A stretch of DNA of 64,000 bases, taken from NCBI GenBank assembly GCA_018697095.1, contig JABHSG010000003.1:20457-84456 (forward strand). Direction: 5' to 3'. Positions 11,326 to 40,429 of this stretch are shown piece by piece. Source of the stretch: an archaeon (GTDB taxonomy: Archaea > Nanobdellota > Nanobdellia > Woesearchaeales > GW2011-AR9). The notes beneath the pieces were generated by a model that was not told the DNA's origin, searched no databases, and saw only the letters and a program-made list of their open reading frames with translations. The position numbers and the translations under genes are program-made. Position 1 is the stretch's first letter. Every line of letters starts with the position of its first letter.

Positions 11326-12945
11326 TCAAGAAGAAACTGCTACAATCCCGTTAATTTCACTCTCCTCGCCAGAATAAACACTAGTTACTGCAACATAATA
11401 ATCTCCACCTGCATAATCAAGACTACTTTCAAAATACACACTTTTTATTTCATCTCCACACACATATCCCTTACCAATTTCCATTGAATTTTCTGCTGGA
11501 CAACTATTCACTTTTTCAATCAAAATTCTTTCAAAAACATTGCTTGTAGAACTTGTACTTTGTAACTCAGAAAAAACTTGCCATTTGCCACTAAAACCTA
11601 AATTCTCATAATCTGTAAAATAAAGTACATAGGATTCAATTGAACTACTTGCTTCAAAACTAATCTCATATCCCCCACTATTAGAATTCAAACTAGAATC
11701 ATATAAAGCGCTAAGGCCACTTATTACTCCTGAGCTTCCACTAAAATCCAGTGCAAAATTATATTCAACATCCCGCTCATACAAACTCTCAACGCAAAAT
11801 TCTACTTTCCCATTAACAAAGCTAAACGAACTTTCAAGGCAAGACCCATAATTCCACCTCTCACCAACCTTAGAATCAAGGCAAGGCTGCAAAGGCGTTA
11901 CACCAGAACAACTCAAAAGTAATTGTTTTGATGCATCAAAAAGTGCATCATACTCTTCAAATTTATAATCACTAGAATAACTAAAATGTGGGTACACAAA
12001 ATAATTTGTGAAAGAAGATAATACATCTGCATTTTGTACTACTTCTACTCTATCAAGTACTTCAAGGCCATTTCGGGCAAACTCTCCCTTATCACTTAAA
12101 GACTCTTCGCAATAACTAACATCCCATTCACAACCATAATTGCAAGGGTCATAATCACAATAATATTGATTAACATATTTATCACAACTTACTTCTTCAG
12201 GGCAAACTCCACAAGAAGCATATTCATTCTCAGAGTAAAAACTCACACAATCAAGTGAGCAAGGGTCCAAATCGCAATATTCAGAAGACGCATAGTTTGA
12301 ACAAGAATCAAAGTTAGAACATTCTTTGCAAGAATTATAAACTAATTCTCCATTATACTCAAAAACCGTAGGCACTTTTCCTTTTTCTCCAAGGCATTGT
12401 AATTCTTCTTCAGAAAAACTACTTTCTTCAAAGTAACGTGGCAAAATTTCAATCTTATCAGAAGCCAAGAAAACAATTTCTTCTCCTGAAAAAAACATAT
12501 TATATTCAATATGGTCAAACCCACTCCTATTTAATTCTAAAATTCCGCTCGCGGCTTCTTTCAAAAATTCAGATTTATATGATGGAAAACAAAAACTTCC
12601 TCCTAAATTCCAAAGGGCAGCCCCACTATACGCCCCACATGAACTACTATCACTCAGATTAAAATATCCGCCTTTCTTAGCCAAATCAATTGTGCTATCT
12701 TCCAAAACTAACGTTAATATCAAATCATTAGATAACAAAATTTCATCACGTTGTGAACTATACTCTTCTAAAAAATCAGATTGCCACTGTCCTTTTACAG
12801 GAAAATCAGTATCCAAACTTAAGTCAAAACTATCTGAAAGGGCCATAAATATTCCAAACGCAAATATAAGTCCAATAAGTATAAAACTAATAACTGTTCC
12901 TTTCTTGTTTAAGAAATTAAACTTTAAAAAATTAAATCTCAACAT
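11326..12945 (-). CDS. prepilin-like N-terminus, Cys-rich secreted protein (539 aa)
   Basis: The N-terminus is ...FLNKKG/TVISFILIGLIFAFGIF. Two tandem CxxCx5Cx8Cx4Cx3C modules are present. The protein is acidic. Confidence 0.5.
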   Translation of the reverse strand: MLRFNFLKFNFLNKKGTVISFILIGLIFAFGIFMALSDSFDLSLDTDFPVKGQWQSDFLEEYSSQRDEILLSNDLILTLVLEDSTIDLAKKGGYFNLSDSSSCGAYSGAALWNLGGSFCFPSYKSEFLKEAASGILELNRSGFDHIEYNMFFSGEEIVFLASDKIEILPRYFEESSFSEEELQCLGEKGKVPTVFEYNGELVYNSCKECSNFDSCSNYASSEYCDLDPCSLDCVSFYSENEYASCGVCPEEVSCDKYVNQYYCDYDPCNYGCEWDVSYCEESLSDKGEFARNGLEVLDRVEVVQNADVLSSFTNYFVYPHFSYSSDYKFEEYDALFDASKQLLLSCSGVTPLQPCLDSKVGERWNYGSCLESSFSFVNGKVEFCVESLYERDVEYNFALDFSGSSGVISGLSALYDSSLNSNSGGYEISFEASSSIESYVLYFTDYENLGFSGKWQVFSELQSTSSTSNVFERILIEKVNSCPAENSMEIGKGYVCGDEIKSVYFESSLDYAGGDYYVAVTSVYSGEESEINGIVAVSS

Positions 12946-13567
12946 AATACCTCACTATAACGCTCTGAATTTCTAATCCATTTGCGCCATTCTCACTACC
13001 ACTAACCAATCCCTCTTCCAAACTTATTGGTACTTCCACTTGTGCATAAAAATCAGGCCGAGTGAAAATTCCGCTACCAGCGCGATAAGATGCAAGTACA
13101 TTTTCTTCTAAAAATTCATTAGATGAATAAACAATCACAATTCCCTCATATCCTGTTGACTCAAAATGTGCCTCAGCGTGCGCCTCGAACAAACCCCAAT
13201 TAGACACTTCAACTCCGTGCACTATAACTTCATTTGCTAAATAACTTCTCTCACCCAATTCATCAGATATACCTTTGCTTTCACTACCTTTTCCATCTTC
13301 GCCACTTTCGCCACCTTCATTTTCTAAAATAAAAGATGAACGCATATAATGAGATAACCCTTGTTCAAGTTCAAAGTCATCCAGGTAAGCATTGGTCTGC
13401 TCCTGTGCAGCGCTCACTGTAAAAGTAAGATACAAAAATAATGAAACGCCCGCAAAAAAAAGCGCTAAGATAGTAAACACTAAATCAAACAAATCATCAA
13501 TTTGCCCTTTTTTAGAAGCAAATAATCTTGGCCTCTTTCTTCCCAGTTTACTTTTCACCAAAAACAT
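12932..13567 (-). CDS. class III signal peptide (prepilin-like) protein, 211 aa
   Basis: ...FASKKG/QIDDLFDLVFTILALFFAGVSLF. The start overlaps the upstream stop as TAATG. Confidence 0.5.
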   Translation of the reverse strand: MFLVKSKLGRKRPRLFASKKGQIDDLFDLVFTILALFFAGVSLFLYLTFTVSAAQEQTNAYLDDFELEQGLSHYMRSSFILENEGGESGEDGKGSESKGISDELGERSYLANEVIVHGVEVSNWGLFEAHAEAHFESTGYEGIVIVYSSNEFLEENVLASYRAGSGIFTRPDFYAQVEVPISLEEGLVSGSENGANGLEIQSVIVRYYVEI

Positions 13568-14118
13568 TAAATCCCCTCTTGCACAAACACTAATAGTTGT
13601 GTACTGAATTCTTCACTTCCACTTCTAACAATAACTGGGAACCTCAAAGTAAAATCAACTTTATTAAAAAAATTATTCGTCATCAATATTTTTTCTTCTC
13701 CACTGTCAACATCAATAGCATCAAACCCAACTAGTGACAATCCAAAATTGAAACTGCTATACCCCCTTTCAGAATCACTACGGTAACAATCATCAAGTCT
13801 TTCTTGAGTAAACTTATCTATATCAATAACTCCACTTTCTATCCTACCAGTTACTAAGTCTTGGTAAGTAAAACACTCAGCTGTATTTACAAACCTAAGT
13901 GCAGTTAGTTTTGCTTCGTATTCAGCTGGCACTGTGGACACTTCTCCTTGATAAATGGATAAAATCATTGCAAAAGCAAGTACTGTAATTGTAATTACTA
14001 CTCCTGCGATCATCCAAAAAATGGATTTACGTGCAATATCATACTGCCCTTTTTTTGATTTAAACATCCTAACCATTTTTCTAAATATTGCCTTTACCTT
14101 ATCCGACCTTCCATCCAA
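13567..14118 (-). CDS. class III signal peptide (prepilin-like) protein, 183 aa
   Basis: ...MFKSKKG/QYDIARKSIFWMIAGVVITITVLAF. Confidence 0.5.
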   Translation of the reverse strand: MDGRSDKVKAIFRKMVRMFKSKKGQYDIARKSIFWMIAGVVITITVLAFAMILSIYQGEVSTVPAEYEAKLTALRFVNTAECFTYQDLVTGRIESGVIDIDKFTQERLDDCYRSDSERGYSSFNFGLSLVGFDAIDVDSGEEKILMTNNFFNKVDFTLRFPVIVRSGSEEFSTQLLVFVQEGI

Positions 14119-14127
14119 ACATATTCA

Positions 14128-14541
14128 CTAAACGCAATTACTAAGTAACATATTTGTATTTTGTTTCACAAAACACAACTTCTCTGATTCCATTACTGAC
14201 CCTGTTGCCTTGTATCCTTTAGGGAGAGAAAAATAATTCGATATTCCAAAGCCTTTATCTTCATCATATAACGCAACTAAAATATGGTCTTGAAACAAGT
14301 GGAATTGATATGATGAAACATCCCCAGGGTATTCTACAACAACATCTCCAGGCGTAGCTACTAATGTGTCTACCATCATTTTCAAATCTTTAGAGAGTAT
14401 CGCTTTTTGAGTTCCAGTTGTACTTCCATAAGATTCTGCAATTTTAACCAATGTAAATATCACAAATAATACTATCAAAAGTTCAAATACTATAAACAAT
14501 ATTTGAACTCCCTTTTTACCACCAAATATTTTTTTCATCAT
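14128..14541 (-). CDS. class III signal peptide (prepilin-like) protein, 137 aa
   Basis: MMKKIFGGKKG/VQILFIVFELLIVLFVIF. Confidence 0.5.
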   Translation of the reverse strand: MMKKIFGGKKGVQILFIVFELLIVLFVIFTLVKIAESYGSTTGTQKAILSKDLKMMVDTLVATPGDVVVEYPGDVSSYQFHLFQDHILVALYDEDKGFGISNYFSLPKGYKATGSVMESEKLCFVKQNTNMLLSNCV

Positions 14542-14572
14542 AGGCCACGCAATTTCTCTATTACTTCTACTT

Positions 14573-15253
14573 CTAATCTAAATTATCTGGAGCTTTAGAA
14601 TCCGTTAAAACAACTGCATTATCAGTACGGGTCAGATAAATTACTCGCCTTCGGTTATCTTCGTCATAAGCAAGTACCAGTTCAGTGGCTTCCGCCAAAT
14701 TTCTTTCAATTACAAACCCACCTTCACAACTCACTGAATTTACATTCTCTGGGTCTCCTACTGCGCAAGAATCAATTTCAAGTGGAAAACTCAAATCTTC
14801 ACAAAGCACTCTTTCAGCCTTAATTACAGTAGTAACAAGTGTGTCACTTCCTTCAGTTTGATAAAAGTCATCCCTCTCAGACTGAACACTCCTAAATAAA
14901 CAAATACAATTTCCACTATCTCCACATGCAGAGGGTTTCTCAAAAAACATTGTTAGATCTGTTTCAGGGAATGGGTAATCAATTACAACATCAACTTGTG
15001 AAATTCCATTTTCAAAATAAACAATTGCTGTCTCTTCATCCATAATCAATATTTCGCTACTTCTCTCGCCTACAAACGATTCAGCAGCAAAGTTCGCTAT
15101 CTCTTGTACGAAATCCGCATAGTTCTCTTTGGCTTGATCACTTGTACGAAATATATTAGACGCAATCATGCAAGCTGGTGCAAATACAATTAATCCTAAT
15201 AGTAGTGATACCAAAAACTTCACCATAAAACCCTTGCGATTCATTTTAAACAT
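14573..15253 (-). CDS. prepilin-like Cys-containing protein, 226 aa
   Basis: MFKMNRKG/FMVKFLVSLLLGLIVF. The ATG at 15253 makes a TAATG overlap with the upstream stop. Confidence 0.45.
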   Translation of the reverse strand: MFKMNRKGFMVKFLVSLLLGLIVFAPACMIASNIFRTSDQAKENYADFVQEIANFAAESFVGERSSEILIMDEETAIVYFENGISQVDVVIDYPFPETDLTMFFEKPSACGDSGNCICLFRSVQSERDDFYQTEGSDTLVTTVIKAERVLCEDLSFPLEIDSCAVGDPENVNSVSCEGGFVIERNLAEATELVLAYDEDNRRRVIYLTRTDNAVVLTDSKAPDNLD

Positions 15254-16104
15254 TAACTTTTCACCCATTCTCCACTATTACAAACATAATTTTTCCCAGA
15301 AACTTCCAAACTGCGTCCTTCTTGTCCGTCCTTACATCCAAACCAAAAACCACTGCTACAAATCAAAGAACCATATTCTGAACTAGACTCCCATCTCCAA
15401 GAAAATAGTCCCTCAGGGTCAGCTTCATCATCAATTGACAAATAAGATCCGCGAACCATATACTCTTTAATTGAAGCTACTCCACTTTGCGAAATTATTG
15501 CTCCACTTCCAAAACTTGCTTGTCCACAATCGTGCGGATCTAAAATACCATCATCTTCACTAGCCATAATTAAACAATAATCACTATTTTTTGGATAACT
15601 AAATTCGTCAACATCACAATCATTATCTTCGCTATGGCATTCTCGCCCAACCATGCCAACACACGCCTGTGCGATTTCACCAGTCCCAGCACCCAAAACT
15701 TCTCCATTGTCATCATCACCAAAAATTTCAATAGATCTATAATGTTCAAACCCTCCTTCAAATGAAGAAACATCAACTTCGCTTTGATCAGTATTCGTTT
15801 TGCCACACTCAGTATCAGAATTATAACTGTCTTGGTCTGCCGCTTTTTCTAAAAGTTCATAGTCGCTTGGGCAACCTGAATTTCCTAAGTCACCATATGT
15901 ACAAGGACAATCATCTTGAAAATCTCGAAATCCATCCCCATCACTATCGGTTTGCACTGACCTAAACTGTCCTCTAATATCATCTCCAACGCCAAGAACG
16001 CCAGGGAAAAAAATCCGCACAGCTACCATTAAAACAACTATTGCAATCAAAAGAGTCATTAGTTTCCACCAAATCTGTTCAGCTCCTTTTTTATTCAAAA
16101 ACAT
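15253..16104 (-). CDS. prepilin-like protein with Ca-binding-type Asp repeat, 283 aa
   Basis: MFLNKKG/AEQIWWKLMTLLIAIVVLMV, plus a DSDGDGFRDFQDDC motif. The internal ATG at 16104 is preferred because it gives a short signal peptide. Confidence 0.45.
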   Translation of the reverse strand: MFLNKKGAEQIWWKLMTLLIAIVVLMVAVRIFFPGVLGVGDDIRGQFRSVQTDSDGDGFRDFQDDCPCTYGDLGNSGCPSDYELLEKAADQDSYNSDTECGKTNTDQSEVDVSSFEGGFEHYRSIEIFGDDDNGEVLGAGTGEIAQACVGMVGRECHSEDNDCDVDEFSYPKNSDYCLIMASEDDGILDPHDCGQASFGSGAIISQSGVASIKEYMVRGSYLSIDDEADPEGLFSWRWESSSEYGSLICSSGFWFGCKDGQEGRSLEVSGKNYVCNSGEWVKS

Positions 16105-16123
16105 AGATCTCAATATAACACCT

Positions 16124-17161
16124 TTATTTCCCTGCGATATCTTCTGATCCGCATTTCTCTTCGCCAATTGTTAAAAAATTAAGTGAAACAGTACTCACAT
16201 CTCTTTCTGTTTCGTCAAAAACAGTATCAACTAAATCGTTATACGCTGCGCTACCTGTGTAAGCACTAGCACCAAGCGCTACTCCACCAACTATAAGTCC
16301 GCCTTTAGCAACTGCAAGTGAACTACTCGCAATAAATACTGCTTCACCTGCTGTTGCTGCTGCTGCAATTCCTCCAGCACAAATTCCACCGGTCCCAACA
16401 ATACAAGCACCAGCGATCACTCCTCCAGTGACAACAACGCCAACACCGACATAAACAAGCGCCACTGTTCCAACAGTTTCAGCAACACCAAACCAAAATT
16501 CAGATGAGCTTTCTTTATTTTTAGGCATAAACGAAATAGAATAAGCTTCTCGTGGAATTATCGCAGGCGCAGTTACAATTGCTCTACCTGGGCCACCAGA
16601 ACTTTGCAAATAATCTAAATAACTTGTATTAGATTTTGAATATGTCTCTTCACGTAAAAATTCTTCAAACTCTTCTTGAGCTATATACCCGCCTTCGATT
16701 TCTTTCTCATCAACAAGTATTGTATAACAATTAAAACACATATTTTCTGTATTTGATATATCAAAAAAAGCATTTATGTCAGTATCATGTAACAGCTCTT
16801 CGTATTTACCCTCGCCAAACATCCACCAACAACTAGCCATCGAATCAGCGAATTCTCGCATTATTTCATCTCGCTCGCCGCTAACCTTCTTAACAATATT
16901 TTTACAAAGTGAAGGTGCCAATTTTGCTTCAACATCAACTCCCATACTCTCTAATCGAACCGCACTCTGTGCGCGAAGCGCATTACTTTCATGACATAAT
17001 ACTTCAGCTGCAATATCGTTTGATTCTGACATGAAGCGCATAAGAGTCCCAGAAACAAGTACAAATGCAATAAGTGTAATCATCATACCAATTAAAACTG
17101 ACCCAGTCATCCCTTTTTTAGAATTAATTACAAACCACTTTTCCTTCTTCTCAAGTCCCAT
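16124..17161 (-). CDS. prepilin-like protein with C-terminal glycine-zipper hydrophobic domain, 345 aa
   Basis: ...INSKKG/MTGSVLIGMMITLIAFVLV. Near the C-terminus is VGVGVVVTGGVIAGACIVGTGGICAGGIAAAATAGEAVFIASSSLAVAKGGLIVGGVALGASAY. The start at 17161 is a TAATG junction. Confidence 0.45.
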   Translation of the reverse strand: MGLEKKEKWFVINSKKGMTGSVLIGMMITLIAFVLVSGTLMRFMSESNDIAAEVLCHESNALRAQSAVRLESMGVDVEAKLAPSLCKNIVKKVSGERDEIMREFADSMASCWWMFGEGKYEELLHDTDINAFFDISNTENMCFNCYTILVDEKEIEGGYIAQEEFEEFLREETYSKSNTSYLDYLQSSGGPGRAIVTAPAIIPREAYSISFMPKNKESSSEFWFGVAETVGTVALVYVGVGVVVTGGVIAGACIVGTGGICAGGIAAAATAGEAVFIASSSLAVAKGGLIVGGVALGASAYTGSAAYNDLVDTVFDETERDVSTVSLNFLTIGEEKCGSEDIAGK

Positions 17162-17967
17162 TAGCAAAGTACCACCTTTGAATCGCCATTCTTAGCGCGA
17201 TTAGCAATAGAATCTTTTTCTCCTAAATCAAACCATTCATTTCCAATCCCATCTTCACTTGCATCAGTCACATAATTAGTTGGGAAAAAACAAATTACTC
17301 CATTCCCTGGTGTGTAAAGCCATCCTTCATTTTCAAAATTATCATTTTCATCATTAACAAAACTATTACCAAACTCTGGAATTTCTATTTTGTTACCACT
17401 ATTTCCAAAAGTTCCACCGTCTGAAAACCTAATGTCAAGTCCCCTCACGTTTCGATAGTTTGGTTCAATAAGAGCTGAAGAACTTTGTGAAATATAGTAA
17501 GAGAAAAAGTTAGGTGCTTCACGTAAATCTCCAGCGATCACACAAGGACTAACGCCATGTATTTCCTGACTTAAACTAGTGACAATTTGTTTGCCCCCAG
17601 CACCTCCACCAACTATTAACTGTGACCCATTCCCTGAATCATCAACTTTTAAAGATAAACTCATTCCTTCTTCTCCAAAATCTGGAACACTTACTGAAAC
17701 TTGAGAAAAACACGTTTTATTGGCATCTCGCATCTGCCCTATGACATCCACAAGCCGGCTAACAAACAATTTTTGATTATCACTAACTACGACTTCTCCA
17801 CCATCAAGTTCTTCAAGACCAACTTCAAAATCCACATAATCTGTGACCCCAAGAACTGTTTCTTTGAGGTCTTCCCACATACCACTTTCTCCATAAAAAA
17901 CCAAAACTGCCACAATTAAAACTAGTAAAGGAATAATATACATCACCATTCTGTTCAAACTTCCCAT
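17161..17967 (-). CDS. signal-anchored secreted protein, 268 aa (no [KR]G motif)
   Basis: MGSLNRMVMYIIPLLVLIVAVLVFYG is followed by an acidic ectodomain. Confidence 0.4.
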   Translation of the reverse strand: MGSLNRMVMYIIPLLVLIVAVLVFYGESGMWEDLKETVLGVTDYVDFEVGLEELDGGEVVVSDNQKLFVSRLVDVIGQMRDANKTCFSQVSVSVPDFGEEGMSLSLKVDDSGNGSQLIVGGGAGGKQIVTSLSQEIHGVSPCVIAGDLREAPNFFSYYISQSSSALIEPNYRNVRGLDIRFSDGGTFGNSGNKIEIPEFGNSFVNDENDNFENEGWLYTPGNGVICFFPTNYVTDASEDGIGNEWFDLGEKDSIANRAKNGDSKVVLC

Positions 17968-18006: not shown

Positions 18007-18153
18007 TTAAAACAGATTCAAAATCCCTCCAAGTATTCCACTAGACTTTGTATTAAGAATAGCCCAAAGCCCAATTGCTGCAAATAATAATAAAAGTCCC
18101 AAAATTATTTTAACCAAAAAACTCATCTCAAATGCTGCTTTTTTAGATCTCAT
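18007..18153 (-). CDS. mini prepilin-like peptide, 48 aa
   Basis: MRSKKA/AFEMSFLVKIILGLLLLFAAIGLWAILNTKSSGILGGILNLF. A GAGG lies ~10 nt upstream of the ATG at 18153. Confidence 0.4.
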   Translation of the reverse strand: MRSKKAAFEMSFLVKIILGLLLLFAAIGLWAILNTKSSGILGGILNLF

Positions 18154-18207: not shown

Positions 18208-18336
18208 TCACGGTGCAATTCCAGAGATTTTTCCTTTAAGTCCAATCATAAAAACAAAAAAGAGCATCAAAGCTGCTAAGCTAACAACAATTAATACTGT
18301 TGTACCTGAACTCATTGCCTTTTTTGTGTTCTGCAT
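18208..18336 (-). CDS. mini prepilin-like peptide, 42 aa
   Basis: MQNTKKA/MSSGTTVLIVVSLAALMLFFVFMIGLKGKISGIAP. Confidence 0.35.
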   Translation of the reverse strand: MQNTKKAMSSGTTVLIVVSLAALMLFFVFMIGLKGKISGIAP

Positions 18337-18747: not shown

Positions 18748-18808
18748 AATGCACCACATCAAACTCTACAAAAATTAAAAATTAATTAAAATTAAAAATA
18801 CTAAACCT

Positions 18809-28805: not shown

Positions 28806-28834
28806 AATTCCTATCTGAAAAGACCCAAAAGGCC

Positions 28835-28846
28835 TATATAAACGTT
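28835..28846 (-). promoter_or_regulatory. BRE/TATA promoter (minus strand AACGTTTATATA) of the giant-protein operon
   Basis: There are 29 nt between the TATA end and the ATG at 28805, implying a near-leaderless mRNA. Confidence 0.55.
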
Positions 28847-28919
28847 CCGACAATAGAGCTCTAAGAAATAGCTAAAAATAACAAACCTACAAAAAAAAAA
28901 TGTTCTAAATCATCAAGGT

Positions 28920-31519: not shown

Positions 31520-33952
31520 TTAAACACACACACCATTTTGGCACTGTCCTTCAAAAACTCCATCATAATTTGAATCACATTCAAAAATTTCATTTGCAAA
31601 AGATGGAAGATTGGAACAGCCCAGTTTCACTGCAAAATTTGTATTCCCCTCATCATCATTTGCTTTAAATTCTGCAGCTAAAAAACTTAAATCGCTTGGT
31701 ACGCTTCCTTGACTAATAAACACAATTGGATTGTCTGAATTCGCATAACTTACTTCACTACACCCCATCTTTCCATGACACCATCCGTTTCTTCCGTTCG
31801 TTTCATCTACAACAAAGCCCCAAGAATCTTTTCCTTCGCAAATATCTGGAATTGAATTTAAATTACATTCTTCATAAGCAGAACTCCCACAAATCATTTT
31901 GTTATTAAAAAGTCGATAATCTGCTCCATCAATACTTGTATCTCCACAAATATTTCCTCGCTCCCCACTACAAACGTCATAGGATTCTTCAAGGACATAT
32001 CCACTATCACTTCCAGTACTAAATCCAATTATTCCACCATAACATCCTGGAACACTTTCATAACAAACATGTTCCAATTCCGCGCCATAAGGCGCATTTG
32101 TATCTGGGTTACAACAACTATGGCCTGCTAAAAAAGGATTAACACGTTCATTTTCTCCTAAATATTCCCCATAGACTGGGCCATTTTCATCATAGGTTTC
32201 TCCATGATAAGGGTAAGCAAATGGGTTAGTCATATTTGTATGTGGGATACAAGCAACTACATTCAAATCCACATAGTCCTCTTCAGGGTCATCGTATTGA
32301 CTACAATAGTCTCTAGAAAACTCCAAAGTCAATCTCCCTGTTGAAGTTACAGTTTCAAAAGATGAGTGCGGCAAATTACTTTCTGCTTGTTTTTTTTTCC
32401 AGTTTTCAATATCATTAGAATAACTATCAATATCGCACCCAAAATGACTTGTCGGCCAAGGAAAACTAAAACAATTTTCACGTTCAGTTTCAAAATTCCA
32501 ATAAAGCCCACTCCATTCTTCAAGGCCAAGACCACCATCTGTATATGACAAACTAGCACTTTCTGTAGCATCTGTAGTCACACTTTCTCCCCCAAGTGCT
32601 ACTCTCACAAAAGTCGGGTCTTCAATACTAACCATTGTTTTACTAGACTGGTCGGTATAACTATATGGATTTTCCACGATAACTTCTGCAGTCATTTCAG
32701 TGTCAATTAATATCTGTACATCTTGCCAATCTAAAAGTCCATGCGAATCACTTGCACTAACTTTAACTTCATAAATATCAGAAACAAATGATTCCTCTAG
32801 TACTCCAGCTTCCATGAAAATTGTTCCATTATCTGCAAGTTCTACATAATACCCTAACGAAGAATCAATTGCACTGGTATAACTAATACTATCATCATCT
32901 GGGTCAAGTGCAAATGGGATTATATCAATCCCTCCTAATTCTGCTTCATGACTTCTAATAACTAGATAATCATATTCACTACAAGCGCGCCTAGACACAT
33001 AATCAAGTGCTGGCGGACGATTTTCAATAGACAAAAAATAACTATAAGGTGAATTTTTCAAAATTATTCCTTCATCTAAATCATAACTAATGATTGTATC
33101 CCCATCACTCCCTTCGACTTCATTAAAAATTGGAGACAATTCCCTATACCTTACTGACTGACGATTTAAAATTTCTTCATTAAAAGGATAAGTTATATTT
33201 TGTGCTTCGTAAATTAACGGCCTAGATACAGCGTGTGTAAAAAAACTTTGAAAATCACTAATATAAAAAAAATCAAAATCTTCTAAATGAAAATAACTCT
33301 CATCACCAACAACTAATTCAAACGGATATAATACTGAAATATCAAACCCTTCAGTTTCAATATCAACTGTTAGTTCCATATCGCCAACAACTAAGTCTCC
33401 AGAATAACTAAGTTCGCTGTTCAAAAATTCTTCAGCGCAAGTTTGTGCCTCTTTTAACATAAAGGCTTGCAAATCTGATTCCACTGTTGAGAGTGTCAAA
33501 GAAGATTTTACTCCAAATTCTGCAAAATCATAAGCACTATATTGACAAAAATCTGGTGCGCTGCTAGTATTTACAGTGCAAGGGTAACTATTAGAATTAT
33601 TTTCGTCTACGTCATAAGTAACCCCAAGGTAAATTTGTTTGTTCTCGCTGCCATATAACACGCCGTTAATCCTATCACGATAAGTTAAACTTCCACCACT
33701 TTGTCCTTCCCAAATTCTGCCTTGCTCACCAAGTAAAATTAATCCTTCTTCTAAGCTATCTTCTAAACAATCAGTTGTAAATATTCGCAAACTTTCTCTT
33801 TCAAATAAAGTACTAACTACATTTTCACTTTCAGTTGCAAGTTCTTCAGTTTGCACCATATTCACAATAAAAAACATAAACCCAGCAGAAGCAAGAAGTA
33901 AAATCCCTAAGATTATGAAAATAGTAACTTGCCCACGATTAGATAACACCAT
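31520..33952 (-). CDS. 810-aa protein with prepilin-like N-terminus and cadherin-like domain
   Basis: MVLSNRG/QVTIFIILGILLLASAGFMFF. The cadherin-like segment is IIPFALDPDDDSISYTS...YEVKVSASDSHGLLDWQDVQILID. The C-terminus is Cys-rich. Confidence 0.5.
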   Translation of the reverse strand: MVLSNRGQVTIFIILGILLLASAGFMFFIVNMVQTEELATESENVVSTLFERESLRIFTTDCLEDSLEEGLILLGEQGRIWEGQSGGSLTYRDRINGVLYGSENKQIYLGVTYDVDENNSNSYPCTVNTSSAPDFCQYSAYDFAEFGVKSSLTLSTVESDLQAFMLKEAQTCAEEFLNSELSYSGDLVVGDMELTVDIETEGFDISVLYPFELVVGDESYFHLEDFDFFYISDFQSFFTHAVSRPLIYEAQNITYPFNEEILNRQSVRYRELSPIFNEVEGSDGDTIISYDLDEGIILKNSPYSYFLSIENRPPALDYVSRRACSEYDYLVIRSHEAELGGIDIIPFALDPDDDSISYTSAIDSSLGYYVELADNGTIFMEAGVLEESFVSDIYEVKVSASDSHGLLDWQDVQILIDTEMTAEVIVENPYSYTDQSSKTMVSIEDPTFVRVALGGESVTTDATESASLSYTDGGLGLEEWSGLYWNFETERENCFSFPWPTSHFGCDIDSYSNDIENWKKKQAESNLPHSSFETVTSTGRLTLEFSRDYCSQYDDPEEDYVDLNVVACIPHTNMTNPFAYPYHGETYDENGPVYGEYLGENERVNPFLAGHSCCNPDTNAPYGAELEHVCYESVPGCYGGIIGFSTGSDSGYVLEESYDVCSGERGNICGDTSIDGADYRLFNNKMICGSSAYEECNLNSIPDICEGKDSWGFVVDETNGRNGWCHGKMGCSEVSYANSDNPIVFISQGSVPSDLSFLAAEFKANDDEGNTNFAVKLGCSNLPSFANEIFECDSNYDGVFEGQCQNGVCV

Positions 33953-34021
33953 CCTTCATAATACTCTCTCATTAAAATAATAATTTAAATTTAATACAAA
34001 TATATTACAACGCCAAACTAA

Positions 34022-37000
34022 TTAATTGTTAGCTTCAATACGCAAGTTAGCAGTTAATTCATTCCACCAAAATTCTGTATTTGTTGCAGTCAAAACCCTG
34101 TATACTCCGTCCGAACTAAGTTCACAATGAACAAGTTCTTTTGGCTCTGCTGGCCATTGATACTCATAGATGTATTCTTCAGGCGCATTATTAATAAAAT
34201 CACAAAGTGGCGACTCAAATCCATCAAATTCCACTGAAACTGTTTCGTTTTCAGACACAATTTCTTGAATTCCCCGAACTGAATAATCTCCTACACTTGC
34301 AATGTAAAGGCGGTTAAAATTTTGAGCTTGCGCTAAAAAGTCTTCACTAAGTTCAGCTTCTGTTGAGCCAAATAAAGAACTAAACCAAGATGTCACTCGG
34401 TCTATTATAGAACTACTAATACTAATTCCTTCTTTTGCATAAATAAGTGAACCAAGTTCACTAGCATACCACATCTCTTCACTACAAGAAATAAATCCAC
34501 TCGCGCCAGTTCCATCGTCACAAAATGTGTCCAAATCAGATACTCCAATCCCTAACGGAATCAAAAATGATTGTTCCTCACTTGCATCCACATTCATACT
34601 TGCTCCAAAAGCTGCAGCATAGTTATCTCCAGATTTATACTTTAAAACGCACACTGCATTAATGCAAGTGTTTTCATCTTGACTAACAAGCCTGCGTCCA
34701 GTTTCGCTATTTTCAAGGGCACTAAAACATACTTCTGTTGTCTCACTAGTACTTGAAGAACTACTCCCGCCTAGTGCAGTTCCTAAGTCTGCGGTTCCGC
34801 TAGATTCTGCGCTAACTTCTCCTGCCAAATAATTAACATAATTGTAATCGTTTTTATCATAATCTACAAATGTATCGTCAAAATAACTACAGTATAAAAC
34901 ATAGTCTTCGCTTTGCGCGAATTCAATAAGTTGTGAAGCTACAAATTTAGTTCTACTAGTCCAGCTACCAGCGTCACAATAATGATCAAGTAAATATTCT
35001 CCATCATTTACGCACGTTGGGTAAATTCCGTCATAAAAGTCTTCAAGTGTTGCTTCGCTACTTGCTCCTTCACTTAAACTACTAGTCACGTAGCATTGCT
35101 CACTTTGTTCACAAAAGCCAAACTCTTCATTATTCCAATCATATTGTGGTTCTAAATGGTTCCAGTCCCCTTCAATACATCGGTAAAATGATTCTTTCCC
35201 AGTGTCCTCTGCTAAATAACTATTTCCTGACATCTCCTCAACGCACGCGTATCCATTATAACACATGTTTTCAGGACAACAAGCGGCTCCAGAACGAACT
35301 GGATATTCTTGATCATATCCACCATCAGCATGTAATTCACCTGCTTCTAAAAGATCGTCTCTTTCTTCCTCACTAAGTCCAACATACCCTTCGCTTGCAC
35401 CCAAGTCATCAACAAGTTGTAAGTAAGGGTAACTATATTCGCATGGGCCAACTACTTCAATTCGTAAATATGAATTCCCAGCTGAAGGAAAATAACTCCA
35501 TTCACTTTCAGAAACCCCGCTAGCAGTTCCATTTTGGTCAACAAGAGTTAAACTAATAGAACTACACTCACTCTCGTCCTGATAACTATAATACTCATTT
35601 TGCGCAAGCGAAATTCTTCCAGAACGTAATATATTTCCAGAATCTACTTCAAAAATTTCATAATCTAATTCACCATATTCGTCTTCAATTAAATTTCCAG
35701 AACTATCAATTAATTGCCAAAAGATTAAGTCTGCACCTTCAGTAGAATCAAAGTCCATGTTTGAGATAAAGTTTCTTCCTGAAACAACGGAACTACTATG
35801 GTTTCTCTGAGTTGCGCTATAACTTGCATCCTTTAATTCAAATTCTGTCTCAGCAGTATATTCTTCAATTTCCGCGTAACCAACTTGACTTATTCCTTCA
35901 TCGCTCCAACTACTTACTAAAAAATTAGAATCAGAATATGAACAATAAAAATTTCCTTGTACACTACAATAACCATAATTTTCTGATAAAACTACGCTTC
36001 CATCTTCAAGTGCAAGTGCCTCTAAATAATCCACTGCATTACATCCATAAAATCCGCCGTTCTCAACTTCTGCGTCATACTCATACAAAACTTGTTGGCT
36101 AATTTCTCGTACACTCACCGCTCCAATTTCATCAAAATTCTGGCTAGCATCATTTGTTACTAAAATTTCTTGCTCAACACCATCAATTTCTGCAACATAA
36201 TACATCTCATAAAGATCCAAATGTTTGTTTGTAATTTTATATGGTGGAAGTCCAGGTAGTGCAAATGTGCATTCTGATTCTATGCAAGGGTAGGAATAAT
36301 CACTATTTGTTTCATTTTCAAAAACACTAATTGTAACTTCTTCTACAGTGCCCATAATCCAAACTTCAAAGTCTTCAGGAAAATCGTCGTCCCAATCAAA
36401 TTCAAAAGTTGTTCCCCTATCTCTTTGGTCATGTGGAGTAAAATAAAATAATTCTACTTCATCTGAATTTCCGCTTTCAAAAGATAATTCTAAACTATAC
36501 TCCCCACCATCAGGAGACAAAACTTCTGATCTTGAGAGAATGTGTTTTCCTAAAAACGCTGGTGAATCATCATAAGAGATATAATCTTCTCCGCTCTTTG
36601 AATCATCTGGACCAATGTAATATTCTTCTTCATGATATCCAATTTGTCCTACAGTTAATGTCAATTCATCAACAGGTCCTAGATACTCCCTATAATCTTC
36701 ACTTCCTTCAGAACAAAATACTTCAAAAGTAGGTAGGTCACCACCATTTGTTTTACATCCTGGATCTCTACTACTACTTCCTGTTTCAGCTATCCTATTA
36801 TCATATTCCTCATCGCACATTCTATCAGAATTCCTTGTAGTCTTACAGTCTAGTTCATCATCCCTATCTGGGCAATCTTCAGCACATTCTCCAGGATTCA
36901 AATCACAAAAATCACTAGTGCTATAATCACAAATCCATTTGAAATTTTCAAGCAAAACAGATCCACTTGCGGAACTAACCCAATTAATAGTTCTGTCTTG

Positions 37001-39493
37001 GTATTCTGCAACATAATCTTCTACTTGGAATTCTACGTTATATTCAACAGTCATCACGGTCTCGCCATTTGCTATTGGTTCTGAGTTAAAACACCCATAC
37101 TCTGTATCTAAACTTTTTCCAGAATAATATTCATTAGCTGCATTTCCGCAACAACTAGCACTTCGATACTCGACTTCGCCATATCCTTCATAATCTCCAA
37201 GCCAAGCTTCACTACCATAACGGCTAATACAAATAGATTCTCCGTCGACATCTGTTTCTGAATCACTCACATCTAAATTTGTAAGCCAATTATTTGCAAG
37301 AACAGTATCGTCAACACCACTACAAATGTACGGGTCTTCTCCACTCTTACTCAAGTATACATTAGCAACTTCAATCTCACTACTAGCTTGCAAAGGAGTG
37401 AACGCTAACTGTGATACATCAAGCCAGTTTCCAATTGGTACTTTTACATGAATAAACCCGCCTGGTTCAATTCCACCTTCAAGTAGTGGTGCATTAACAG
37501 CATACCCAAGTACATATTGATCAAAATAAATTACTTGTTCTTCTGTCGTTATATCAATTGGAAGACCTTGTATAAGCAATTTAATATTTTCAGGAATTAT
37601 TATTCCTTCATTTGTATACCTAACAAAAAATTCTAAATAATCATAATCTGTAAAATCAAGTGTTTGATCAAAGTTTGCAATACTGTAAAGTTCTTGATAA
37701 CTTTCAGTATATGATCCTGCTGAAGTCAAGTCAACTTTCCATAAGTTTTCACTAACCATTACAATTGGAAGTGCTACAGCCCCATCTCCAATCTCACGAA
37801 GTTTAGTAGAACTTGGATTATATACTATTCCAGATTCACTTTCAGTACTAGAACTGTCCAAAACACATTCGGCCCAAGCATAATGGTCTCCTTCTTTTGT
37901 ACAATAAAGTCTATTAGCTCCAAGTATCCATGGGTTTAACTCAGCGTCAATTGAATTGTGTGGTCCAACGTGTTCGTCAGCACTACACTCGAGCCAACCT
38001 TGTTGTCCTCCTTCTGACACAATATCATAAGCTTCTTCTCCAAAACTTCTAATTGTAAAAATTTTTAGTTGATTGCTTGCTTCAGAAATCCAACACCACT
38101 TACTTCCACTAGCACAACTTTCCGGCGCATCAACTACTTGTGGAACTAAGTCTATATCTGTACTCAAGCAAGCATACTCTTGATCTCCACCGTCCCACTC
38201 GCGAATATCTCCTAAATATCCCCCTTCACTAGTTTGATCAAAAAGGCCAGCTCCACAACAAAAACCTGGTTCTATATCAATATCATCAAGACTTAATGAA
38301 TCATCACATTCTGTTTCGTTTCCTTCACAAGCATCGCCTTGTAAACTTAAATAATCGCAACTGTTATCTCGCCATAAACAATGACTCTCGCATGCTGTTG
38401 GGTTTTCATGGCAGCTATCTGGCTGTTCAGGAATCCTATCTTCATAATCTCTATCTGGATAAAGTTCATCATAAACATTACTAAACCTATCATACAAATT
38501 AGATTCCAAACATATATTAGAAACGCCATCGCCACAAATTTCTACTGGGTTATCATCTCCAAGACCATTAAATGGGGTTAAATCACTTTGCACTCGCGCA
38601 TCGTTATCATCACAATCCCAATCTCCTTGACTAAATGGTCCACTTCCAGGAGCGCCATCACCATCTTCATCATAATGGTTTAAAATATATTCAAAGTCTC
38701 GCCACTTTTTCCCATCACACAAAAAAACCTCGTATGTTGCAATGCCACCTTCTTCTGTTGAAGGAATCTTTTGAGTTACAATTAAGTGGTCAGGGTTATG
38801 ATCTGCGTCAAACAGATCCCAATAGTTACCGTATGCATGCCCAGTTTCGCTAACTAAGTTTAATCCATCTTTTCCTCCACACACAAGCATTGCTGGAATA
38901 TTGTTTATTCCACCTTTCTCTCTTATTTGACTAACATCTGTACTATCAATTCCATAATAATTTCTTCTAGGTGCTAAAAATGCACTAACGTCAAACTTAA
39001 GTTTATCAACACAATTTCCACTTGCTCCTCCTCCTTCCCAATCATTTACATCATCATAAAAACCATCACCTGCATTACACTCATTACGATCTTCGTCTTG
39101 GCATTCTATTATCCCATCACCATACAACTCATCTGATGCTATTGCTGCTATTTCTATTGCATCATTATCTGAAATTGCCCAGTTAAAGGATGCTTCATAC
39201 AAATACAAAAAAGTGTTAGCTGTCATTTGATCAAAATATCTACTACTTGCTGGTTCTCCATTCGCTTTTCGAAGACACACTGGTGAATCACTAATGTCGC
39301 CACTTTCAACTCCCACGCATAAAACCCGTTGATCTGAAGCAATCCAAGAATTTTGTGTATTCTGACCATTAAGGCAATCATCAAAAATAGTTGCTTTACT
39401 AGTACAAGAACTCAAAAATAAAATACTAATTAGTAAAAGGGCAAAAGCTACTCGCAGTTTAATAGAGAAGACTTTCTTCTCACCAATCACCAT
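34022..39493 (-). CDS. giant Cys-rich surface lipoprotein (1823 aa)
   Basis: It has a lipobox ILFLSSC/T. DEDGDGAPGSGPFSQGDWDCDDNDARV...ICGDGVSNIC is a MopE-like DCDD metal-binding motif. The protein is very acidic and Cys-rich. It has its own promoter at 39517. Confidence 0.6.
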   Translation of the reverse strand: MVIGEKKVFSIKLRVAFALLLISILFLSSCTSKATIFDDCLNGQNTQNSWIASDQRVLCVGVESGDISDSPVCLRKANGEPASSRYFDQMTANTFLYLYEASFNWAISDNDAIEIAAIASDELYGDGIIECQDEDRNECNAGDGFYDDVNDWEGGGASGNCVDKLKFDVSAFLAPRRNYYGIDSTDVSQIREKGGINNIPAMLVCGGKDGLNLVSETGHAYGNYWDLFDADHNPDHLIVTQKIPSTEEGGIATYEVFLCDGKKWRDFEYILNHYDEDGDGAPGSGPFSQGDWDCDDNDARVQSDLTPFNGLGDDNPVEICGDGVSNICLESNLYDRFSNVYDELYPDRDYEDRIPEQPDSCHENPTACESHCLWRDNSCDYLSLQGDACEGNETECDDSLSLDDIDIEPGFCCGAGLFDQTSEGGYLGDIREWDGGDQEYACLSTDIDLVPQVVDAPESCASGSKWCWISEASNQLKIFTIRSFGEEAYDIVSEGGQQGWLECSADEHVGPHNSIDAELNPWILGANRLYCTKEGDHYAWAECVLDSSSTESESGIVYNPSSTKLREIGDGAVALPIVMVSENLWKVDLTSAGSYTESYQELYSIANFDQTLDFTDYDYLEFFVRYTNEGIIIPENIKLLIQGLPIDITTEEQVIYFDQYVLGYAVNAPLLEGGIEPGGFIHVKVPIGNWLDVSQLAFTPLQASSEIEVANVYLSKSGEDPYICSGVDDTVLANNWLTNLDVSDSETDVDGESICISRYGSEAWLGDYEGYGEVEYRSASCCGNAANEYYSGKSLDTEYGCFNSEPIANGETVMTVEYNVEFQVEDYVAEYQDRTINWVSSASGSVLLENFKWICDYSTSDFCDLNPGECAEDCPDRDDELDCKTTRNSDRMCDEEYDNRIAETGSSSRDPGCKTNGGDLPTFEVFCSEGSEDYREYLGPVDELTLTVGQIGYHEEEYYIGPDDSKSGEDYISYDDSPAFLGKHILSRSEVLSPDGGEYSLELSFESGNSDEVELFYFTPHDQRDRGTTFEFDWDDDFPEDFEVWIMGTVEEVTISVFENETNSDYSYPCIESECTFALPGLPPYKITNKHLDLYEMYYVAEIDGVEQEILVTNDASQNFDEIGAVSVREISQQVLYEYDAEVENGGFYGCNAVDYLEALALEDGSVVLSENYGYCSVQGNFYCSYSDSNFLVSSWSDEGISQVGYAEIEEYTAETEFELKDASYSATQRNHSSSVVSGRNFISNMDFDSTEGADLIFWQLIDSSGNLIEDEYGELDYEIFEVDSGNILRSGRISLAQNEYYSYQDESECSSISLTLVDQNGTASGVSESEWSYFPSAGNSYLRIEVVGPCEYSYPYLQLVDDLGASEGYVGLSEEERDDLLEAGELHADGGYDQEYPVRSGAACCPENMCYNGYACVEEMSGNSYLAEDTGKESFYRCIEGDWNHLEPQYDWNNEEFGFCEQSEQCYVTSSLSEGASSEATLEDFYDGIYPTCVNDGEYLLDHYCDAGSWTSRTKFVASQLIEFAQSEDYVLYCSYFDDTFVDYDKNDYNYVNYLAGEVSAESSGTADLGTALGGSSSSSTSETTEVCFSALENSETGRRLVSQDENTCINAVCVLKYKSGDNYAAAFGASMNVDASEEQSFLIPLGIGVSDLDTFCDDGTGASGFISCSEEMWYASELGSLIYAKEGISISSSIIDRVTSWFSSLFGSTEAELSEDFLAQAQNFNRLYIASVGDYSVRGIQEIVSENETVSVEFDGFESPLCDFINNAPEEYIYEYQWPAEPKELVHCELSSDGVYRVLTATNTEFWWNELTANLRIEANN

Positions 39494-39516
39494 AGGCTTA
39501 AATTAGCTTAAAGAGT

Positions 39517-39528
39517 TATATAAACGTT
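39517..39528 (-). promoter_or_regulatory. BRE/TATA promoter (minus strand AACGTTTATATA)
   Basis: There are 23 nt between the TATA and the ATG at 39493, so the transcript is likely leaderless. An 8-1-8 palindrome aaaagaaa-c-tttctttt lies at 39549-39565, just upstream. Confidence 0.55.
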
Positions 39529-39650
39529 ACGACGAGAACAAACTTTCAAAAAGAAACTTTCTTTTGTTTTTTCAAAATAACCCTTGAGTTTAAATGATAA
39601 AATAATAATAATAATAAAATTTAATCTTAGTTCTTTGTTAAATGCACTCT

Positions 39651-40244
39651 TTATCTATCGCAATTAAACGTTATTGAATGTACTGCGTCATCAAAGTCTT
39701 CTTCTGTAACCATTTCAAGACTAACTGCGAACCCAGTCCCATATCCTGACCCAAATTCTTGTCCCCAAAGCCCAGGGCCAATTGCATAATCTGAATGCGC
39801 CATTAATTGAACTGCAACATCTGTGCAATCTATTTCTCCAAGTGGTTCTTCGTTAGCATCTTGAAGCTGGTATCCTGCACCTGCTTCACCCTCACTAAAA
39901 TATCCCCCATACCATTCACTAAGTTTGCTTAGGTCAAACCTTGCCTCAAATTTAGAAGCTCCGGTTGTAACTAGTTGCCCAACCCCTGTTTCTATATCGT
40001 GATACCCTAAACTCAAATCTAATGTTGAACAATCGTCTTGCACATATATTTGCGCGGCAGTTCCAATATCACTTAACCATACGTCACAAAATTCATCTGG
40101 ATTATACTGTTGTGTTGCTTCATCATATATTGCTCCAGCACGATCTTCTTCTTTTTTACAACCACTCCCAATCACTCCTACTACTACTAGAGCTAATAAA
40201 TTCCTTACTAAACTACTCTCTGAACTAAATTGTCTTTTATGCAT
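39651..40244 (-). CDS. acidic lipoprotein (197 aa)
   Basis: MHKRQF...LLALVVVGVIGSGC/KK is a lipobox. ATG 40244 is preferred over TTG 40286. Confidence 0.45.
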   Translation of the reverse strand: MHKRQFSSESSLVRNLLALVVVGVIGSGCKKEEDRAGAIYDEATQQYNPDEFCDVWLSDIGTAAQIYVQDDCSTLDLSLGYHDIETGVGQLVTTGASKFEARFDLSKLSEWYGGYFSEGEAGAGYQLQDANEEPLGEIDCTDVAVQLMAHSDYAIGPGLWGQEFGSGYGTGFAVSLEMVTEEDFDDAVHSITFNCDR

Positions 40245-40429
40245 TTTTATTCCCCACGTTAACCATTTATAATCCAAGCTCCACAAAATAAATCATCTGT
40301 TTCTATAAAAGTATTTCCAAAAGGTGCTAAAATGACACATTTTACCTAGGGTTTAGTGCTATTGGTTCACTTTACCAAAGATATCGCTACAAAAGATATC
40401 CTTTTATACGAAAACTTCTATTAAACTAC

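Follow-up and report, generated by a model that had tools for sequence, protein, structure and literature searches.

A conserved woesearchaeal locus of pilin-like and giant adhesin-like surface proteins

Results

Layout of the surface locus

The window analysed here is a 64-kb stretch of woesearchaeal DNA (contig JABHSG010000003.1, forward strand) with a low content of guanine plus cytosine (GC, ~35%). It harbours a surface locus of ~28 kb and ~22 genes, which encodes ~16 distinct pilin-like proteins and several giant adhesin-like proteins. The original prediction, made from the sequence alone, described a nearly unidirectional and tightly packed locus, and this agrees with the layout of the open reading frames (ORFs). 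All sizeable ORFs between 11326 and 40286 lie on the minus strand, with the sole exception of one plus-strand ORF (30151–31515), and the intergenic gaps range from -44 to +229 nucleotides (nt). Along the minus strand, the 5' part consists of an 1823-amino-acid (aa) lipoprotein, an 810-aa pilin-like protein and, past the ORF on the other strand, a 389-aa protein and a giant membrane protein. The middle part comprises pilin-like proteins of 173, 372, 184 and 187 aa and, after a gap of 229 nt, those of 125 and 101 aa and two mini-pilins. The 3' part begins with a 268-aa anchored protein, continues with seven further pilin-like proteins and runs up to the gene for an RPA-like single-stranded DNA-binding protein (9969–11210, minus strand; OB folds by Pfam), which forms the conserved downstream boundary and lies outside the locus. 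The ectodomains had been described as very acidic and Cys-rich and the proteins elsewhere as Lys-rich; the compositions bear this out, with 17.1% D+E, 6.0% K+R and 3.1% Cys in the locus proteins versus 12.5%, 13.8% and 0.9% in the flanking proteins.

Conservation across relatives

Scanning a one-genome-per-species collection with the 372-aa protein gave 234 confirmed matches. Eighty of these, each with 10 kb on either side, were fetched as the comparison set, and orthologues were located by tblastn; because many contigs end within this range, orthologue counts drop with distance from the anchor gene. A comparison of synteny had been proposed, and the same gene order, ending at the RPA gene, is found in the 80 loci. 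Nearly every gene recurs with its strand and relative offset unchanged, and the order is kept even in the most distant homologues (27–29% identity). Where annotation was read (L001–L003, L006, L007 and L008), the block ends with the RPA-like gene; many other related loci end with an ORF of ~320 aa. Strict collinearity over 80 loci, with 234 species-level matches, speaks for a joint function of the products. The locus is a conserved module that is not peculiar to a single genome.

Of the 98 homologues of the 372-aa protein, none has been named by function or contains a Pfam domain. The organisms that carry them, as far as they are named, are Woesearchaeota, Nanoarchaeota or plain 'archaeon', which fits the small-genome archaeon, here a member of the DPANN group, that had been predicted. 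Dozens of locus-bearing GenBank records of metagenome-assembled genomes (MAGs) bear the title 'uncultured Methanosarcinales archaeon', which is probably a wrong label or a submitter's placeholder.

The core block

The proteins of the core block are all encoded on the minus strand. Their N-terminal sequences are given here with a slash at the predicted cleavage site, and the conservation of the N-terminal helix (N-helix) is expressed in the orthologue alignments as the identity over the first 25 mature residues versus that of the remainder of the protein. The 173-aa protein (MLGKKA/QGIGQVFMF..., 21752–22273) belongs to the most widely conserved family, with orthologues in 80/80 loci at a median identity of 49% and an N-helix identity of 0.64 versus 0.50 for the rest. 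The largest core subunit is the 372-aa protein (SKKG/QLTLSFNW..., 20575–21693). It is followed by the 184-aa protein (GKHG/QMQMMETVGV..., 19979–20533), present in 78/80 loci (0.62 versus 0.42), and the 187-aa protein (SKLG/QSEMIGLVIIV..., 19416–19979), present in 73/80 (0.75 versus 0.40).

The 229-nt gap, the largest within the locus, precedes the gene of the 125-aa protein (GKKG/QGLSLNVIIVAALALIVLVVLVLIFTGR..., 18809–19186), the candidate major pilin. Its small head contains four invariant Cys residues. Orthologues occur in 64/80 loci, and the identity is 0.86 in the N-helix and 0.32 in the rest. The 101-aa protein (GRKA/QSNMFWIIIGAVIALVV..., 18457–18762), with a Cys-rich tail, is a paralogue of the 125-aa protein (BLASTP E 1e-6); it was found in 56/80 loci, with an N-helix identity of 0.68 versus 0.37 for the rest. 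Two very short ORFs follow. Mini ORF A (42 aa, MQNTKKA/MSSGTTVLIVV...KGKISGIAP, 18208–18336) has a counterpart of similar sequence at the same position in most of 51 loci, with the pattern M..NKK[AG]/VDWSSPETLV...KLKGxLxP, and is called as a 42-aa gene in L002. Mini ORF B (48 aa, MRSKKA/AFEMSFLVKIILG...ILGGILNLF, 18007–18153) likewise recurs in most of 51 loci, with the family pattern MNKKG/MEMWQLVLIILALLLLF..IAWYGGL...LLDKLGxLL, and is called as a 48-aa gene in L001–L006. We regard both as real genes because position and consensus recur in most of these loci. The mature mini-pilins, at ~35–42 residues, would be the shortest pilin-like peptides known to us.

AlphaFold2 (AF2) models based on deep alignments cover two families. 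The model of the 372-aa protein (pLDDT 92.4, pTM 0.86) contains a helix of 47 residues (18–64), a beta domain and a helical bundle; that of the 125-aa protein (pLDDT 80) contains a helix of 46 residues (14–59) and a small disulfide-bonded helical head. Both models thus have a long N-terminal helix with a globular head, a 'lollipop' architecture.

N-terminal signals

ORFs were assigned to the pilin-like set when [KR/H/L][GA] preceded a hydrophobic segment of 16 or more residues with a mean Kyte–Doolittle value of at least 2.3. A six-frame scan of the window for [KR][GA] with a strongly hydrophobic 16-mer within 8 residues and a Met within 40 residues upstream identified 14 locus ORFs, and the 810-aa ORF, that begin with this pattern. 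Direct reading adds 19979–20533 (KHG/Q), bringing the set to 15 ORFs and the 810-aa ORF, and places the cleavage site of 19416–19979, already in the scan, at KLG/Q. All of them lie between 11326 and 33952. The 389-aa protein also scored in the scan but carries a Sec-type signal, and 17161–17967 has the basic N-terminus and the anchor with the G/A missing. The count of 16 prepilin-like proteins plus the 810-aa protein in the original prediction was accordingly right to within this one borderline case. No other genuine protein N-terminus of the window carries the motif according to the scan; the remaining matches fall in one antisense ORF and, within M50, YdjM and DUF5692 proteins, in internal transmembrane (TM) segments.

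Counted from the nearest in-frame start codon, the leaders of the window proteins measure 5–21 aa, and the basic leader and [KR][GA] are followed by ~25 hydrophobic residues. Across up to 80 species, the orthologue consensus M-x-N-K-K-[G/A] abuts the hydrophobic segment in most aligned families. Gln occupies position +1 in 9/17 window proteins and, among orthologues, in 62/70 of the 187-aa, 71/76 of the 184-aa and 77/77 of the 372-aa family. Related loci of 21 kb contain a median of 13 class III-like N-termini, in which Gln is the commonest +1 residue (36%). The pilins of Methanococcus that are processed by EppA have leaders of 5–13 aa that end in Gly, with Gln at +1 (PMC3875500). The leaders of the locus match this description in being short and G/A-terminated with Gln at +1.

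The six core families (173, 372, 184, 187, 125 and 101 aa) have N-helix identities of 0.62–0.86 versus 0.32–0.50 for the rest, a ratio of 1.3–2.7. An N-helix that is far more conserved than the ectodomain is a pilin signature and implies helix–helix packing. Outside the core, the N-helix is weakly more conserved in three families, and the ratio is 0.8–1.0 in four families of the downstream block. The giant and its 389-aa mini-paralogue carry classic Sec signals (KKRG-LFLVV...S-x-A/QEGC). The signal of the giant served as an internal control; its identity is 0.16 versus 0.34 for the rest of the protein (ratio 0.5), as expected for a cleaved Sec signal. These comparisons support the proposed class III (prepilin-type) architecture: at least in the core block, the N-termini appear to behave as class III signals, unlike the Sec signals of the same locus.

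The giant proteins and lipoproteins

The giant (22302–28853, minus strand; 2183 aa from TTG, 2167 aa from the ATG at 28805) is a type-I membrane protein with orthologues in 76/80 loci. It consists of a Sec signal, a Cys-rich domain, CarboxypepD_reg immunoglobulin-like domains and DxDxDG repeats of Ca-binding type, followed by a TM segment (aa ~1975–1997) and a cytoplasmic tail of ~150–190 residues. Among the domains listed earlier for searches, CarboxypepD_reg is matched in this protein by Pfam (E 2e-25) and five DxDxDG motifs of thrombospondin-type-3-like character are present; there is no significant match to the Pfam TSP_3 model. The tail (22305–22859) contains two copies of a conserved motif, [IL]FxKL[ED]xI[AS] and, at the C-terminus, EAKDIFxKLKxISKKRK, which recurs in nearly all of the ~40 orthologue C-termini listed.

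The 389-aa protein (28920–30089, minus strand) has a Sec signal, a Cys-rich N-domain, a TM segment and a basic cytoplasmic tail of ~140 aa. As had been proposed, it is a mini-paralogue of the giant, whose N-terminal Cys-rich domain it matches with 29% identity over 154 aa (E 1e-10), and orthologues are present in 60/80 loci. Read by eye, the C-termini of these orthologues often end in xLxKLKx[MI]xKK-type sequences like the terminal motif of the giant. The resemblance between the two tails suggests a shared cytoplasmic partner.

The conserved block begins with the gene of the 1823-aa protein (34022–39493, minus strand), which is acidic and Cys-rich and has the lipobox LSSC. In 6/6 loci with sufficient flank, the orthologue of the 810-aa protein is immediately preceded by the C-terminus of the 1823-aa orthologue. 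The 810-aa pilin-like protein (leader MVLSNRG/QVTIFIILG..., 31520–33952, minus strand) has a large Cys-rich ectodomain; orthologues occur in 44/80 loci, a number limited by flank length, and Gln is found at +1 in 8/12 of their N-termini. Neither protein matches Pfam or the Protein Data Bank (PDB), and the 810-aa protein does not match NCBIfam either. The cadherin-like domain ascribed to the 810-aa protein was not recovered by Pfam at E <= 0.1, nor was the MopE-like domain that had been suggested for the locus.

Two further lipoproteins had been named beside the 1823-aa protein, and lipobox-like N-termini are visible in all three. The 454-aa protein (lipobox LPAC, 30151–31515, plus strand) has a homologue in 0/80 loci and no Pfam match, and it reads as a lineage-specific insertion outside the conserved module. 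At the upstream edge, the 211-aa lipoprotein (lipobox GSGC, 39651–40286, minus strand), which is not shown to be part of the module, has no Pfam match and no homologue in the 80 loci, most of which end short of its position.

The downstream block

The downstream block runs on the minus strand from 17967 to 11326. Its first protein, of 268 aa (17161–17967; 56/80 loci), has a basic N-terminus and an anchor without G/A, probably an uncleaved signal anchor. The identities of anchor and rest are equal (0.29 and 0.29), and the family varies from 244 to 702 aa among loci. The 347-aa protein (SKKG/MTGSVLIG..., 16124–17167; 54/80 loci; consensus leader MKNKKG/) has an additional Gly/Ala/Val-rich hydrophobic region of ~90 aa at its C-terminus (FWFGVAETVGTVALVYVGVGVVVTGGVIAGAC...), which may form several TM helices or a glycine-zipper and is unusual for a pilin. 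The 304-aa protein (NKKG/AEQIWWKL..., 15253–16167; 27/80 loci) has a Cys-rich head with one DSDGDG motif. It is followed by the 231-aa protein (MNRKG/FMVKFLVSLLLG..., 14573–15268; 44/80 loci; consensus MNKKG/IMLKFLV), the 137-aa protein (GKKG/VQILFIVFELL..., 14128–14541; 47/80 loci) and the 183-aa protein (SKKG/QYDIARKSIFWMIAG..., 13567–14118; 48/80 loci; consensus MNKKG/QFDVARKSIYWMIAG). The fast-evolving 211-aa protein (SKKG/QIDDLFDLVFT..., 12932–13567) was located by tblastn in 7/80 loci, and many loci have an ORF of like size at its position. The last gene encodes the 539-aa protein (NKKG/TVISFILIG..., 11326–12945; 41/80 loci; consensus MNKKG/), which has a Cys-rich ectodomain.

All-versus-all hhalign comparison of the profiles of 13 families indicates that their ectodomains are mutually unrelated (probability <= 10%). 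An origin of the pilin-like proteins by tandem duplication was rejected on these grounds, since no links between families were found except for the 125/101-aa pair.

A superfamily of small pilin-like proteins and its peptidase neighbours

A profile of the 125-aa family identifies at least 2,740 clusters at 50% identity, many of them sharing mainly the N-module. This module is near-invariant (KK[GA]/QG[LI]S[LI]N[VT]II.AA.ALIVLVVLV.IFTGR), and the members sampled are 65–150 aa long with hypervariable Cys-rich heads. They include L092 10001–10645, L094 8013–8279 and 10001–10249, L095 10001–10549, and P0283–P0364. Genomic context was read for four members, and all four are encoded away from the locus by stand-alone or tandem genes. 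A conserved N-domain with variable heads in stand-alone genes is the pattern from which Makarova et al. predicted major pilins (PMC4858521). No Pfam model matches any of 10 sampled members above the curated cut-off. Current Pfam and NCBIfam models miss this very large family of small archaeal pilin-like proteins; if so, pilin censuses that rely on them probably under-count in these genomes. The annotation of the Joint Genome Institute (JGI) calls some members 'YqiK', 'TatA' or 'cobalt transport substrate-binding protein'.

In L092, a gene for a Peptidase_A24 protein with the GGGD motif lies 6 kb from a tandem pair of superfamily pilins. Scanning the JGI metagenomes with this peptidase gave 80 A24 loci; no contig from the JGI sample holding the present organism was among the matches. 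In four of the loci (L103, L109, L145 and L151) the peptidase gene lies 0.06–3 kb from relatives of the locus proteins: a relative of the 372-aa family in L103 and distant relatives of the 173-aa family, at 3 kb, in L145 and L151. In L109 (1–8730, minus; 9992–10861, plus), a 330-aa pilin-like protein and the 2578-aa ORF next to it are arranged divergently, ~1.3 kb from the Peptidase_A24 gene. The N-terminus of the 330-aa protein (MSKRG/QITLFIILG) is homologous to that of the 810-aa protein, and L109 looks like an alternative arrangement that ties the peptidase to this set of proteins.

Assembly machinery and database searches

Pfam was run on the 22 locus proteins and ~35 flank proteins, and NCBIfam on 10 pilin-like proteins. 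The original prediction had noted no ATPase, platform or prepilin peptidase in the 64 kb, and none emerged: no sizeable ORF of the window matches the T2SSE/FlaI, T2SSF/FlaJ or Peptidase_A24 models, and no T2SSE-type Walker A/B pair was detected in the window by regular expression. A narrower first search for a motor with a Walker A pattern alone likewise found nothing, and there is no polytopic peptidase inside the window locus or the 80 orthologous loci. In Methanococcus maripaludis, the ATPase and two platform genes occupy a locus apart from the Epd pilin operon, and the PilA pilins of Haloferax volcanii are similarly unlinked from their ATPase and platform genes (PMC3875500), so the absence of these genes in cis is not unusual. 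The genes flaI, flaJ and flaK have been reported in most Woesearchaeota MAGs (PMC5994134, PMC11606122).

The only curated model matched within the locus by Pfam or NCBIfam is CarboxypepD_reg in the giant, which, like the two next largest proteins, has no sequence match in the PDB. By sequence, the locus corresponds to no curated family or known pilus cluster, in keeping with the earlier failure to match it to characterised archaeal systems, and a description of it was not found in the literature searched. An ATPase-centred census of archaeal type IV filament (TFF) systems took core assembly genes, the ATPase and the platform among them, as the basis for defining clusters (bioRxiv 10.64898/2026.04.22.720090); a cluster without an ATPase would probably not be captured.

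Discussion

Comparison with known systems

The closest characterised system is the Epd pilus of M. maripaludis (TFF 'system 1'). In both, the leaders are short, basic and Gly-terminated, with Gln at +1 (PMC3875500), and very small subunits (54–63 aa mature in Epd) are encoded beside larger pilin-like proteins. Epd too is a multi-gene pilin cluster with an adhesin-like member, and its ATPase and two platform genes lie elsewhere (PMC3875500; bioRxiv 10.64898/2026.04.22.720090). Unlike Epd, the locus has no match to DUF361/Class_III_signal (PF04021), no Glu at +5 and no peptidase within the cluster, whereas EppA sits in the Epd operon; it does not belong to the Epd type on these three counts, and no sequence homology between the two was detected. 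The locus also has about twice as many distinct pilin-like families, mini-subunits that are only ~35–42 residues long when mature, giants of 1823 and 2167 aa, and TM-anchored proteins whose cytoplasmic tails are conserved.

Four minor-pilin-like genes of different sizes, a very large adhesin of Ca-binding type and an adjoining small major pilin recall fimU-pilVWXY1E of the type IVa pili of Myxococcus and Pseudomonas, and GspH-K of the type II secretion system. In bacteria, the minor pilins and PilY1 prime and tip the fibre (PMC7541494). This resemblance is an analogy of gene arrangement and not homology. Pfam and a Foldseek search with the 372-aa model gave no match to the FimU/PilVWX/GspHIJK folds or the PilY1 beta-propeller. 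Unlike the bacterial module, the locus belongs to an archaeon with a single membrane and its giant has its own TM segment and cytoplasmic tail; the head of the candidate major pilin is predicted by AF2 to be helical, not alpha-beta as in bacterial pilins. As in PilA1-6 of H. volcanii, which are encoded away from pilB/pilC, a conserved hydrophobic N-domain is combined with divergent heads (PMC3875500, PMC4858521). The PilA proteins, however, are paralogues of one family (arCOG02416), match Pfam pilin models and have no associated giants, whereas the locus has at least 13 unrelated families in an operon-like block. The Sulfolobus bindosome (Bas) likewise has class III signals on diverse surface proteins and does not require long fibres (PMC3047682), but its substrates are solute-binding proteins encoded beside ABC transporters, with basEF in the genome; Pfam finds no solute-binding or transporter domain in the locus proteins. 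Overall, the locus proteins agree with type IV filament subunits in leader, in N-helix conservation as far as the core block goes, and in the architecture of the two families modelled, and depart from them in curated models and fold similarity.

Interpretation and alternative explanations

Our data suggest, with moderate confidence, that this locus supplies the structural components of an adhesion apparatus that is specific to Woesearchaeota and resembles type IV filaments, the peptidase and the motor being encoded elsewhere. In this model, some 15–16 prepilins would be cut after G/A by a Peptidase_A24 of FlaK/PibD type encoded at another locus, and the hydrophobic N-helices of the cleaved subunits would pack together. 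The core block most likely would form a fibre or stalk with a priming or tip complex, in which the 125-aa protein would be the major subunit. The ectodomains of the downstream block, the 810-aa protein, the 1823-aa lipoprotein and the 2167-aa, disulfide-rich giant would supply adhesive or contact surfaces. Polymerisation would depend on an ATPase of FlaI/PilB type and a platform of FlaJ/TadC type acting in trans, as in Epd. The membrane-spanning giant and its mini-paralogue may couple the apparatus to a cytoplasmic partner through the tail motif. The apparatus likely serves to attach the cell to a partner, a host or a surface.

Several observations weigh against this model. No curated pilin or archaellin model (PF04021, PF07790, TIGR02537 and similar) matches the pilin-like proteins, and Foldseek searches of the PDB with the 372-aa and 125-aa models gave no match at E <= 1e-3 and no solved pilin; a pilin fold is thus not confirmed by similarity, the predicted architecture being consistent with one and the heads apparently new. 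The orthologue alignments have no conserved Glu at +5, which is typical of Epd and bacterial pilins. Across the eight downstream-block proteins the ratio of N-helix to rest is 0.8–1.6, without the pilin signature of the core; their anchors are no better conserved than the ectodomains, and these proteins may simply be membrane-anchored. The idea of a fibre of many minor subunits, put forward in the original prediction, is too simple: conservation divides the pilin-like proteins into the core block, with its pilin-typical hyper-conserved N-helices and candidate major pilin, and the downstream block. The giant has a TM anchor of its own, so that its carriage on a fibre is not obvious. Finally, no T2SSE-like ATPase was found by a regular expression for Walker A plus Walker B in 176 sequences totalling 2.42 Mb (the 80 orthologous loci, the stand-alone pilin loci, the 80 A24 loci and the window). 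We take this negative to mean that the motor is unlinked; it is not evidence of the absence of a motor.

The products, some 20 in number, could instead assemble into a non-filamentous, stoichiometric envelope or contact complex, in which the class III N-termini would be only processed anchors and oligomerisation helices, as in the bindosome substrates. The giant TM protein and the lipoproteins would then be the main surface layer and the pilin-like proteins short membrane-embedded stalks. A defined hetero-complex of this kind would agree with subunits that are each single-copy, fixed in position and unrelated in ectodomain to the others, as the hhalign comparison indicates. The 234 matches, which make the locus look like core gene content of the lineage, the unremarkable conservation of the downstream anchors, the membrane anchoring of the giant and its mini-paralogue with their similar tail ends, and the lack of a motor anywhere near the locus point the same way. 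The hyper-conserved core N-helix and the huge family with hypervariable heads, however, look like polymerising major pilins, and even the bindosome requires a dedicated ATPase and platform. We consider such a complex somewhat unlikely. A more far-reaching reading, which we hold to be distinctly unlikely, is that more than 15 unrelated pilin-like proteins would build a membrane-rooted hetero-oligomeric stalk without a dedicated canonical type IV pilus motor, coupled mechanically or by signals to the cytoplasm through the FxKLxxIS-KKRK tails of the giant and its mini-paralogue and serving as a woesearchaeal organelle of host contact.

As a competence-type pseudopilus, the apparatus would be a short fibre, made up of a single major pilin and several minor ones, that captures environmental DNA and is functionally tied to RPA and RadA; the organism probably relies on nucleotides from outside. 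The small helical-headed major pilin and the four mid-sized minor pilins do recall ComGC with ComGD-G, and the RPA-like gene is a conserved neighbour on the same strand, with RadA 4 kb beyond. The window is nonetheless a neighbourhood of replication genes by a predicted origin (MCM, Cdc6, PolD, RPA and RadA), and the adjacency of RPA is for this reason most simply read as conserved synteny. With no ComEA- or ComEC-like gene present, and giant adhesin-like proteins not expected for DNA uptake, a pseudopilus appears very improbable. We find it hardly credible that the locus is a mere island of surface proteins with ordinary Sec signals or type II anchors, in which KKG would reflect only the positive-inside rule in a Lys-rich proteome. 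The failure of all curated pilin models and the lack of machinery in cis would be explained in this way, but not the fact that up to 80 species conserve G/A at -1 and Gln at +1. The true Sec signals of the locus, those of the giant and its mini-paralogue, differ in appearance and show little conservation, no other membrane protein of the window has the motif, and genes for A24 peptidases adjoin relatives of the locus proteins. The adhesion apparatus assembled by machinery in trans is the interpretation that we prefer.

Woesearchaeota are among the most widespread DPANN archaea and are tiny, probably host-dependent cells; we know of no well-characterised laboratory culture. What had been an odd stretch of one genome is now defined as a ~22-gene module, kept in order in hundreds of species and without functional annotation. 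It offers a candidate major subunit, a minor-pilin-like core, giant adhesins and a conserved cytoplasmic docking motif as targets, and, being lineage-wide, large, unannotated and testable, it is relevant to work on DPANN archaea and on the archaeal envelope.

Neighbouring genes

By Pfam, the window also encodes MCM, TBP, Cdc6, the PolD small subunit, RadA and the RPA-like protein. An AT-rich intergenic region (~29% GC, 56838–57493) lies upstream of cdc6 (57494–58693) and contains an inverted pair of elements with G-string/TTCCAC sequences (56943–56979 and 57323–57359), separated by 343 nt. They look like the origin recognition box (ORB) elements of a replication origin. MCM, PolD-small, RPA and RadA all lie within 50 kb, and the surface locus is ~17–45 kb from this probable oriC.

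A 206-aa protein (8823–9443, minus strand) has one TM segment and a JAMM/MPN+ metalloprotease-like motif (HTHPRGSCIASETD), with no match in a Pfam search at E <= 1e-3. Three ORFs without a Pfam match lie between the surface locus and the ThiF/PP-loop genes: 42339–43850 (minus; 503 aa, Lys-rich), 43950–46190 (plus; 746 aa) and 46219–47001 (minus; 260 aa). A Ser/Asp-rich 318-aa protein (47299–48255, minus strand), which has just one anchor, at the N-terminus, and lacks a KG motif, is a probable further surface protein outside the locus; it has no homologue in the 80 related loci, which cover the main locus. A 300-aa protein (52099–53001, plus strand) matches the HopA1 effector family (PF17914, E 1.9e-10). 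The family is known from type III effectors of plant-pathogenic Pseudomonas, and its presence in an archaeon is unexpected.

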